This document shows positions 1,954 to 3,381 of a stretch of 5,458 bases of DNA, in pieces; the first letter of the stretch is position 1, and each line of letters begins with the position of its first letter. The DNA comes from a virus (taxonomy: Duplodnaviria > Heunggongvirae > Uroviricota > Caudoviricetes): the IMG/VR virus record IMGVR_UViG_2579778797_000013. One strand, given 5' to 3'. Both the position numbers and the translations under genes were made by a program. Below the pieces are notes generated by a model that saw only the letters and a list, made by a program, of their open reading frames with translations, searched no databases and was not told the DNA's origin.

Positions 1954-3333
1954 TTACACAATGCGTTGAAATAACGTTAAGTTTGTTGTCATGGTCTGCT
2001 CATCGTATCCGGGAGCACCCAGACTGAAAGCAGACACAAAAGCCCGCCATGTCCCCGGGATACTGTTTCCGGCATTATGAACAATCGAGAACGTGGGCGA
2101 ATACGTGACGCCAACGCGGTAAAGAATCGCCACTTCAGTAATTTTTTCGCCACTGATATTCTCTTTAATTGCACTTTCACTTTCGAGAGTCGATATCGAA
2201 CCAAATAAGAAAGAGCCAACCGCATATTTTTCTGTGGATACATTACCATTCCTGCCTGCTGCCCCCTGCGGCCCTGCCGGACCACGAGGACCTGCCGGGC
2301 CGGTTTTCCCCTGCGGCCCCGCGGGACCTGTTGCTCCGGGTTCGCCTTTGTCCCCTTTTGGCCCCGGGGCACCTTTGGCTCCGGCTGCACCAGCCGGTCC
2401 CCGTGGGCCTGCGGGCCCCACTGCACCAGGTGCGCCAGGTTCCCCCCTGTCCCCCTTCGGTCCGGGGACTGCTGCCCGGGTTGCTGCCTCTTCTGCCTTC
2501 GTTTTTGCTGCCTGCACTTCTGCCATTACCGCTTTCACAGCCTTTGGGGTTGCCGCTTTTGTTTCATCATCGCTGTTGGTATCGCTGCTCAGCTGTACAA
2601 CACCTTTCTGTGATGTGCTGGCATCCGGAACACTGGCGACACTGCCTGCGGGACCCGCAGGACCTGCGGGGCCGGTTTCTCCCCGAGGGCCTGCGGGACC
2701 CTGTGGTCCGGGTGGTCCGGCCTCTCCACGTGGGCCGGTGTCACCTTTCGGCCCCGGCGGTCCGCCCGGGTCACCTTTATCGCCCTTCGGTCCCTGTGGA
2801 CCTGTTTCTCCCCGTTCTCCCTTTGGCCCCGGCTCACCTTTTGGTCCGACCGCCCCCGTTGCCCCGGCTGGTCCCTGTGCCCCTGTGGCACCCTGTGGAC
2901 CTGTGTCCCCCTTCTCGCCCGCCGGTCCCCGGGCATTCTCTGCCCGTTTCTTCGCTTCCTCTGCACTCGCCGCCGACGCTTCAGCACGCTTCAGGATTTC
3001 CGCTGCCACCACTTCCAGCTCTGCAAGCGCTTTCGGGTAATACTGCGCCTCATCCTGTTCCATCAGAAATTTATTCAGCGTTCCCGGCTCAGAATCCGCC
3101 TTCACCAGAATGTCACCCACATACGACGGGGCGTACCCTTCCGTGTTCAGCGTCACCCGGTACCACCCCGGCTCCACATCAAAACTGTAACTGCCGGTTT
3201 CCCCCGGCTGCCCCTGCGCCACCGTGGTGACAATCACTGTCTCCGTGGTGCGCAGGGCTTTCAGTTCAATGGTGCATCCCGGTACCGGCTTCCCGGTGCC
3301 GTCCTTCAGCACGCCCGATATTCTGACTGTCAT
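1954..3333 (-). CDS. stf: Side tail fibre protein with collagen-like Gly-X-Y repeats (459 aa); lambda Stf-like N-terminal domain
   Basis: ATG 3333-3331 preceded by GGGG (3344-3341) with 7-nt spacing; stop TAA at 1956-1954. The N-terminus [26 protein letters not shown]... closely parallels the lambda Stf N-terminus ([25 protein letters not shown]...) as I recall it. An internal [28 protein letters not shown] segment parallels lambda Stf [28 protein letters not shown]. Two long G-X-Y blocks (aa 136-230 and 291-363) are rich in Pro, Lys, Glu and Ala. Confidence 0.88.
2245..2463 (-). repeat. Collagen-like Gly-X-Y block 2 of stf (aa 291-363; 24 uninterrupted triplets)
   Basis: Direct reading of the translation, with Gly at every third position from G291 to G363; end codons checked against the nucleotide sequence. 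Confidence 0.85.
2644..2928 (-). repeat. Collagen-like Gly-X-Y block 1 of stf (aa 136-230; 31 triplets with one interruption at G190-G-P-P-G194)
   Basis: Direct reading of the translation; I checked the codons at both ends against the nucleotide sequence. The DNA is GC-rich with recurring short motifs such as cctgcgggacc. Confidence 0.85.
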
Positions 3334-3345
3334 AGATTTTCCCCA

Positions 3346-3381
3346 TAAAAAAAACCGCAGTGCCGGTTTCCCGGTCTGCGG
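3346..3381 (-). terminator. Rho-independent terminator between J and stf
   Basis: Minus-strand RNA reads CCGCAG-A-CCGG-GAAA-CCGG-CA-CUGCGG followed by U8 then AU. That is a 6-bp outer stem (3355-3360 / 3376-3381), a 4-bp inner stem (3363-3366 / 3371-3374), a GAAA tetraloop and a U8 tract (3354-3347). The U-tract runs straight into the stf Shine-Dalgarno (GGGG, 3344-3341). Confidence 0.8.

Follow-up and report, generated by a model that had tools for sequence, protein, structure and literature searches.

The side tail-fibre gene of the viral DNA studied here begins almost directly behind a hairpin and a run of uridines. This arrangement raises the question of which gene the apparent terminator belongs to and how transcripts of the fibre gene get past it. 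The genes concerned lie on the minus strand of the window, that is, the whole stretch of 5,458 nucleotides that was analysed. Of the tail-tip gene J, the window contains the 3′ portion (3703..5458), which is open from the window edge, ends with the stop codon TAA at 3705..3703, and matches the Pfam families Ig_J, Ig_J_second, Phage_Tail_Tip, and Ig_GpJ_C; in E. coli LZSFT34 and NCTC9112, the RefSeq annotation has gpJ at exactly this position. A gap of 370 nt separates it from an stf-like gene (1954..3333), which encodes a side tail-fibre protein of 459 aa with collagen-like repeats (Pfam phage_tail_N, 142 bits; Collagen; Phage_fiber_2). The ribosome-binding site of stf (3331..3344), conserved in 51 loci, consists of GGGG at 3344..3341, a 7-nt spacer AAAAUCU at 3340..3334, and the ATG at 3333..3331. 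An out-of-frame ATG that the earlier note placed at 3345-3343 really lies at 3346..3344 and opens an ORF of 26 aa. The stop of stf is overlapped by an accessory gene for 197 aa (1368..1961). By the ORF list and Pfam, the product of this downstream gene (1961..1368), which had been mentioned previously, is a DUF4376 protein and no classical Tfa.

The anatomy of the hairpin is established. It comprises 27 nt of the minus strand at 3381..3355, read from the sequence as CCGCAG-a-CCGG-GAAA-CCGG-ca-CUGCGG, with a folding energy of -16.9 kcal/mol. Its stem of 10 base pairs (6+4) carries a GAAA loop and a 1x2 internal loop. The U8 tract (3354..3347; T7-T8 in relatives) starts at the base directly 3′ of the last stem pair, and only AU at 3346..3345 stands between this tract and the GGGG of the stf ribosome-binding site. 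The geometry U8-AU-GGGG-AAAAUCU-AUG, with 2 nt from U-tract to Shine-Dalgarno, is therefore exact in the minus-strand reading, as had been described. Both hallmarks of an intrinsic terminator, a stable GC-rich stem-loop and a U-tract immediately 3′ of it, are present. Among the 10,862 27-mers of the window, counted on both strands, only 10 reach the stability of this hairpin. The window also has ten runs of at least six T, and only two of these runs stand behind a stable hairpin, namely the one described here (3354..3347, minus strand) and one at 1358-1365 of the plus strand. The 76-nt context of the hairpin has a z-score of -3.06, and the hairpin is present in both the minimum free energy (MFE) and the centroid structure. 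Judged by these features, the element is the signature of a strong canonical intrinsic (Rho-independent) terminator, which agrees with the earlier description of a strong terminator before stf, and real termination at this site would be expected. A consensus promoter and terminator scan of the window did not list the J-stf hairpin among its terminators, most likely because the 1x2 internal loop breaks the stem that the scan requires. Bidirectional action was considered and rejected: what comes after the hairpin on the plus strand is TAAAAATCG, which contains no U-run, and the terminator is thus unidirectional.

The position of the element also determines how stf can be transcribed. Just 13 nt lie between the U-tract and the ATG, which rules out an stf-specific promoter between terminator and start codon. 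As had been argued previously, stf transcripts must consequently cross the hairpin. In the read-through RNA, the stf Shine-Dalgarno lies 10 nt past the stem, and in the fold of the 76-nt context the hairpin does not mask it.

The gap between J and stf had been treated as a spacer. It is not empty: by descent only, these 370 nt are a decayed hok/sok type I toxin–antitoxin cassette, of which the hairpin forms the 3′ terminator. The label is restricted to descent because the Rfam score of the window remains under the gathering threshold and hok is a non-functional gene. The 5′ end of the cassette carries a promoter-like site (3658..3686, minus strand) with a -35 element TTGCCG at 3686..3681, a 17-nt spacer, and a -10 element CACAGT at 3663..3658. 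The predicted +1, G3651, was put where the Rfam hok-leader model starts. This site was recognized by eye and from the alignment; since it falls short of the 9-of-12 rule of the consensus scan and was not reported there, it is treated as a putative promoter in the window. In every aligned relative the -10 element reads TACAGT, so that the first T has become C in the window. The predicted hok mRNA leader (3492..3651, minus strand) begins with a tac-like GGGUGCC at 3651..3645. An Rfam scan by E-value gave one match, to RF01794 (named "sok", in reality the hok mRNA leader), with 32.5 bits and an E-value of 1.3e-4, below the gathering score of 59.

The remaining parts of the cassette are preserved to different degrees. 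A putative sok-like antisense RNA gene occupies 3509..3603 of the plus strand; a by-eye promoter reading gives a -35 element TTGCTC at 3509-3514, 18 nt, and a -10 element TAACCT at 3533-3538, followed by a stem-loop at 3566-3599 and UUUU at 3600-3603. Its hairpin folds with -26.8 kcal/mol (z = -4.8), and its position agrees with that of Sok of plasmid R1. A mok-like ORF on the minus strand (3519..3581) is truncated to 20 aa; in the intact relative L005 it has 52 aa and overlaps hok. The hok pseudogene itself (3403..3503, minus strand), identified by alignment with intact 46-aa hok loci and by Pfam HOK_GEF, starts with GTG at 3503..3501. A 10-nt deletion within an AAAAACC(GTT)AAAAACC repeat frameshifts it after codon 4-6, leaving MSQKPP-stop. 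A second deletion of 103 nt between CCGGAT(A/G)GC repeats near 3415/3414, common to the window and strain M3, has removed the C-terminus of Hok and a GC-rich hairpin behind hok. What is left of the Hok frame is a short ORF at 3486..3403 (MICITVVLIIWITHRSLCEFRFRIAPF) that matches HOK_GEF with 25.9 bits at profile positions 9-30 of 42; it is a remnant only, not an intact Hok/Gef toxin ORF (Pfam PF01848).

The same deletion has affected the 3′ end of the RNA. A remnant of an fbi-like element, GCACC at 3410..3414 of the minus strand, corresponds to the sequence that in intact relatives is predicted to pair with the 5′ GGGUGCC, as the alignment and the fold of L005 indicate. In the MFE structure of the window RNA, the 5′ end pairs locally, its 3′ fbi-like partner being half deleted to GCACC. 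Between the fbi-like element and the terminator hairpin lie about 33 nt, a longer spacing than in R1, which speaks against the hok/sok assignment of the hairpin. With a changed -10 base and deletions of 10 and 103 nt, the cassette in the window is, as read from its sequence, dead, and its terminator is intact. Since the two deletions have destroyed the toxin gene, no post-segregational killing from this cassette is possible. In the identical genomes, the RefSeq annotation of the gap consists of just a "hypothetical protein" of 21 aa (a 66-nt CDS).

The homology to hok/sok is established from relatives. A megablast search of complete E. coli genomes found the gap to be 100% identical in LZSFT34 and NCTC9112 and 86-94% identical in many other genomes, with matches in 149 of 5,426 genomes. 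In those relatives, RefSeq places a "Hok/Gef family protein" between gpJ and a "prophage tail fiber N-terminal domain" gene. The intact relative L005 encodes a Hok of 46 aa (HOK_GEF, 43.5 bits). For the homologous loci, RF01794 gives 61.6 bits in L005, which reaches the gathering score, and 51.1 bits in L006. The predicted hok mRNA of L005 (414 nt) folds with -188.2 kcal/mol and a z-score of -9.0. In its MFE structure, the first 17 nt close onto GGUCAGCCGGAUGGCACC near the 3′ end, and the terminator hairpin is the last element; the alignment likewise places the hairpin at the 3′ terminus of each copy. This fold agrees with the published layout of hok mRNA, which has a tac/fbi stem, mok/hok, and a stem-loop as terminator (PMC9841398), and the agreement was counted for hok/sok identity.

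To which side of the junction the hairpin belongs was read from 51 non-redundant junctions, obtained from 43 IMG/VR loci sharing this stf start and from further loci. A hairpin and T7-8 stand immediately before the stf ribosome-binding site in all 51, with a constant position of U-run and ribosome-binding site, and lambda has them as well. On this comparative evidence, the element is not a chance feature. The type of hairpin tracks the upstream cargo in every junction (51/51), and this linkage is established. Hairpins of the form CGCAG-n-CCGG-GnAA-CCGG-nn-CTGCGG were found in 41 loci, always behind a hok locus or a hok remnant (41/41); the form of the window, CCGCAGaCCGG-GAAA-CCGGcaCUGCGG (3355..3381, minus strand), is conserved throughout these loci. 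In the other 10 loci, the hairpin is GAAGCCCGTGGCGTCACTGCTGCGGGCTT (arms GAAGCCCG..CGGGCTT), unrelated to the hok type, and the cargo is lom (10/10). Most of the 41 hok-type loci carry a full-length hok (one is too short to classify and one has a hok frameshift), five show the double deletion of the window, and one the single deletion of M3. Ten are remnants in which about 34 nt of the promoter and 5′ end are followed by the hairpin only, as in phage PhiR12_1.

These junctions also show where the border runs. In E. albertii, a hairpin of the lom type with T7 is joined to a different stf ribosome-binding site, AUUGGUGGAAAAGUAUG. This junction and that of lambda both put the boundary right after the U-run. 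As far as the compared sequences go, the hairpin and U-run go with the cargo cassette and the ribosome-binding site goes with stf. The "fusion" of terminator and ribosome-binding site that had been described is exact as an adjacency; what it represents is a module boundary, which exists in lambda too. The J-stf slot itself behaves as a moron site, as alternative cargo occupies it: hok/sok, including remnants, in 41 loci, and lom in 10 loci and lambda. A moron is an extra unit that brings its own promoter and terminator and can be expressed from a repressed prophage (PMC3594210), and the cargo-linked hairpin fits this definition. The cassette has its own terminator, and its promoter-like site, read by eye, is below the threshold of the scan. 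No cargo-free J-stf junctions were found: besides E. albertii, a search of genome contigs with the Stf N-terminus yielded almost only lambda control-DNA contamination in unrelated assemblies.

The hairpin varies little among the hok-type loci. In nine distinct hairpins, pairing is kept in 98% of cells, and 8 of the 11 pairs are the same throughout; changes in the 41 loci are confined to unpaired positions, wobble-compatible positions, or the pair at the stem end. One pair varies among the nine, being G.U in four, A-U in two, and G-C in one, with an A.C mismatch in the window and M3. Due to this mismatch, the window hairpin is the weakest variant, at -16.9 compared with -22.1 kcal/mol. A covariation test on the nine hairpins detected no double-sided change beyond one pair and gave no statistical support, the divergence being too shallow to inform. 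Since this test is uninformative, the hairpin is supported by its energy, its conservation, and the occurrence of independent hairpins at this position.

Taken together, the hairpin and U8 tract (3381..3347) are very probably the intrinsic terminator of a hok/sok-type moron in the J-stf cargo slot, the slot of lom in lambda. The cassette would be dead in the window, and stf would be fenced off in the lysogen and reached by Q-modified polymerase crossing the terminator. In intact relatives, the promoter is expected to fire at GGGUGCC and to produce a hok mRNA of about 410 nt. In lysogens, this mRNA would close on itself by 5′-3′ (tac/fbi-like) pairing and end at the hairpin, and an antisense Sok-like RNA would be transcribed from the opposite strand. 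The terminator would stop transcripts from the moron promoter, together with stray transcripts, 13 nt ahead of the stf start codon, and the fibre genes would stay silent in the lysogen. Stray transcription would also be kept out of the DUF4376 gene and the cargo beyond. During lytic growth, late transcripts made by Q-modified polymerase would cross the terminator and carry the stf ribosome-binding site outside the stem. The tight abutment to this site would then be a module boundary left by cargo exchange and not a purpose-built fusion.

In the textbook view, lambdoid phages cross terminators by means of Q-modified RNA polymerase, which reads through them (10.1101/651190; PMC9388147). The earlier note had proposed such Q-antiterminated read-through. 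By analogy with standard lambda logic, this part is plausible; the terminator, however, had been assigned to the wrong unit, as a device between J and stf instead of the cassette's own. No Q-type antiterminator gene lies in the window. The prophage of E. coli LZSFT34, whose junction is 100% identical to that of the window, is complete and lambdoid. In the Q position, after RusA, it encodes a DUF1133 protein that weakly resembles Q21 (6p18, E 8e-5) over the C-terminal 45 aa only. This is only suggestive of a Q-type antiterminator. The earlier note had also named an stf-specific promoter within the spacer as an observation that would speak against its reading. A promoter-like site is indeed located there, but it is that of hok and lies upstream of the terminator, and hence would not feed stf. 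That this arrangement makes stf expression "strictly dependent on lytic induction", as the earlier note had it, is still an inference.

Whether selection has acted on the terminator for the sake of the fibre genes is a separate matter. One version is that the terminator was kept by selection after the death of its own gene, having been co-opted as a gate that silences the stf genes and the Eib/YadA-like cargo beyond unless polymerase is Q-modified. This is conceivable, and we regard it as rather unlikely. If such a gate were real, the J-stf terminator would be a functional part of fibre regulation, merely donated by cargo cassettes. Along the same line, the sok-like gene of the window, which seems intact, may have been retained as an orphan antitoxin against hok mRNAs brought in by relatives. 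A stronger version, which spells out the view of the earlier note and in which selection on stf expression holds the terminator in place, the fibre genes are Q-dependent or attenuated relative to J, and the link to the cassette is incidental, appears improbable. The constancy of a hairpin and U-run at the same place in 51 of 51 stf starts and in lambda, whatever the cargo, points in its direction. So does the intact hairpin in 16 loci with a broken or almost wholly deleted hok, which represent three states of decay (window-, M3-, and PhiR12-type). Some of these loci with broken hok belong to plaque-forming phages (the PhiR12 series). Moreover, the PhiR12-type hairpin differs from that of the window at 3-4 of 27 positions, located at loop, closing-pair, or pair-forming sites, and the flanking 3′ region looks, in qualitative terms, more diverged than the hairpin in the alignment. 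However, the hairpin sequence goes with the cargo and not with stf in all 51 loci, having a terminator belongs to the definition of a moron (PMC3594210), and the retention of the hairpin may simply reflect recent decay.

It is very unlikely that the hairpin is an inert relic, or a 3′ stabilizer or processing landmark in late polycistronic RNA, with the U-run at most acting as an A/U-rich stretch that enhances translation from the weak GGGG Shine-Dalgarno: the lost first T of the -10 element (TACAGT to CACAGT), the A.C mismatch where relatives pair G-C, G.U, or A-U with its drop from -22.1 to -16.9 kcal/mol, and the U-run immediately before a 4-nt Shine-Dalgarno in all copies can be read this way, but -16.9 kcal/mol with U8 still makes a strong canonical terminator, on a par with the -17.1 of lambda lom, and the remaining stem pairs are invariant.

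With the terminator assigned to the hok/sok-type moron, the annotation of the region is corrected: the supposed spacer of 370 nt is a pseudogene cassette of hok/sok that owns the terminator. The junction also shows that boundaries in lambdoid mosaics can fall exactly between the U-run of a cargo terminator and the ribosome-binding site of the next gene. Beyond annotation and boundary, nothing unexpected is added to the regulation of lambda late genes. A search of the literature for hok cassettes described in the J-stf slot, or for any explicit account of the lom terminator next to the stf ribosome-binding site, found nothing specific. Intact copies are already labelled Hok/Gef by RefSeq, and the feature is real and ordinary.

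The closest known arrangement is the lom-stf junction of lambda, where the lom stop is followed by AGCCCGCCGGAACCGGTGGGC-U6 and then by GU-GGGG-UGAAU-AUG of orf-401 (stf), the hairpin having -17.1 kcal/mol. The slot is the same (J, cargo, stf), as is the geometry, with 5 nt in lambda from GGGG to the ATG of a phage_tail_N fibre gene. By analogy, the same logic may be proposed, in which the cargo is on in the lysogen and the fibre genes are expressed in late transcription only; lom is expressed in lysogens (PMC7067206). In contrast to the window, the cargo of lambda is an intact outer-membrane protein, Lom, and no type I toxin–antitoxin, and the hairpin sequence is unrelated.

Compared with hok/sok of plasmid R1 (RF01794, PF01848), the cassette is prophage-borne between J and stf, its intact Hok has 46 aa and that of R1 52, and the distance from the fbi-like element to the terminator exceeds that in R1. 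Shared with the published R1 layout (PMC9841398) are the Hok/Gef peptide, a mok-like ORF that overlaps hok, a leader that fits the Rfam model, and a terminator stem-loop at the 3′ end; a putative Sok-like gene on the opposite strand and a predicted 5′-3′ closure of the complete mRNA would add to the likeness. A lambdoid prophage locus of the hok/sok family is also known: hokW-sokW of Sakai prophage 5 (EHEC O157) has been demonstrated experimentally to be a toxin–antitoxin system (PMC8621323). HokW has 51 aa, and the likeness to this locus concerns its family and its lambdoid prophage setting. The decay seen here has a chromosomal counterpart as well. Pedersen and Gerdes in 1999 reportedly found the chromosomal hok loci of E. 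coli K-12 (hokA-E) to be mostly inactivated, with the flanking RNA elements persisting. The K-12 loci were inactivated mostly by IS insertions. Decay with retained RNA elements is thus common to hokA-E and the window, whereas the damage in the window consists of slipped-repeat deletions of 10 and 103 nt.

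On the plus strand of the window lies an apparently intact sok-like antisense gene (3509-3603), whereas the hok remnant (3403-3503, minus strand) carries three lesions. The sok-like gene is composed of a promoter-like TTGCTC/TAACCT followed by a hairpin of -26.8 kcal/mol and UUUU, and it may represent an orphan antitoxin RNA. A terminator-like hairpin, CCGCGCATACTGTGCGG with T5, overlaps the hok promoter at 3650-3666 on the same plus strand. Only the T-to-C change in the -10 element of hok, which is specific to the window, allows its fourth pair to form and, consequently, the hairpin is probably accidental. 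In the prophage of E. coli LZSFT34, whose J-stf gap is identical to that of the window, there is also an annotated hokD together with a type II toxin-antitoxin pair of the HigB type (15504-15659 and 7639-8303). A single prophage therefore carries several toxin-antitoxin cassettes.

The side tail-fibre protein Stf (1954-3333, minus strand) contains long collagen-like Gly-X-Y runs (four Pfam Collagen stretches), which are flanked by the phage_tail_N domain on one side and a divergent C-terminus on the other. The length of Stf varies among otherwise near-identical prophages (459, 473 and 517 aa). Just 3' of the DUF4376 gene that follows stf, a GC hairpin, GGGGGTGAGGCATCACCCCC, occupies 1337-1356. 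Its T8 is located on the plus strand, while on the minus strand, the gene's own, only UCUUUCG follows the hairpin. Consequently, the terminator at the end of the operon points mainly the other way. Region 1-1367 has a GC content of 0.41, compared with 0.605 in stf, and an ORF with a signal peptide (886..1, minus strand), starting MNKKFSKTILSSAVAGLLLVSGG, continues past the left edge of the window. The annotation of its homologue in E. coli NCTC9112 as a "YadA C-terminal domain-containing protein" suggests an Eib-like cargo.

When the Stf N-terminus was used as a query, two matched loci from E. albertii NBRC 107761 (L062 and L067) had a different stf ribosome-binding site (ATTGGTGGAAAAGTATG) joined to the lom-type hairpin and T7, which places a recombination boundary directly 3' of the U-run. 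The genome-contig loci L055-L061 and L063-L066 (n = 11), from assemblies that bear the names Leeuwenhoekiella, Pseudomonas, Neobacillus, Kitasatospora, Bradyrhizobium, Vibrio and Amycolatopsis, among others, matched at approximately 51% identity, as lambda itself would be expected to. Two of these contigs are approximately 48.4 kb long, and the exact lambda lom-stf junction is present in all four loci that were read out of the eleven (L055, L063, L064 and L066). These matches look like contamination with lambda control DNA.
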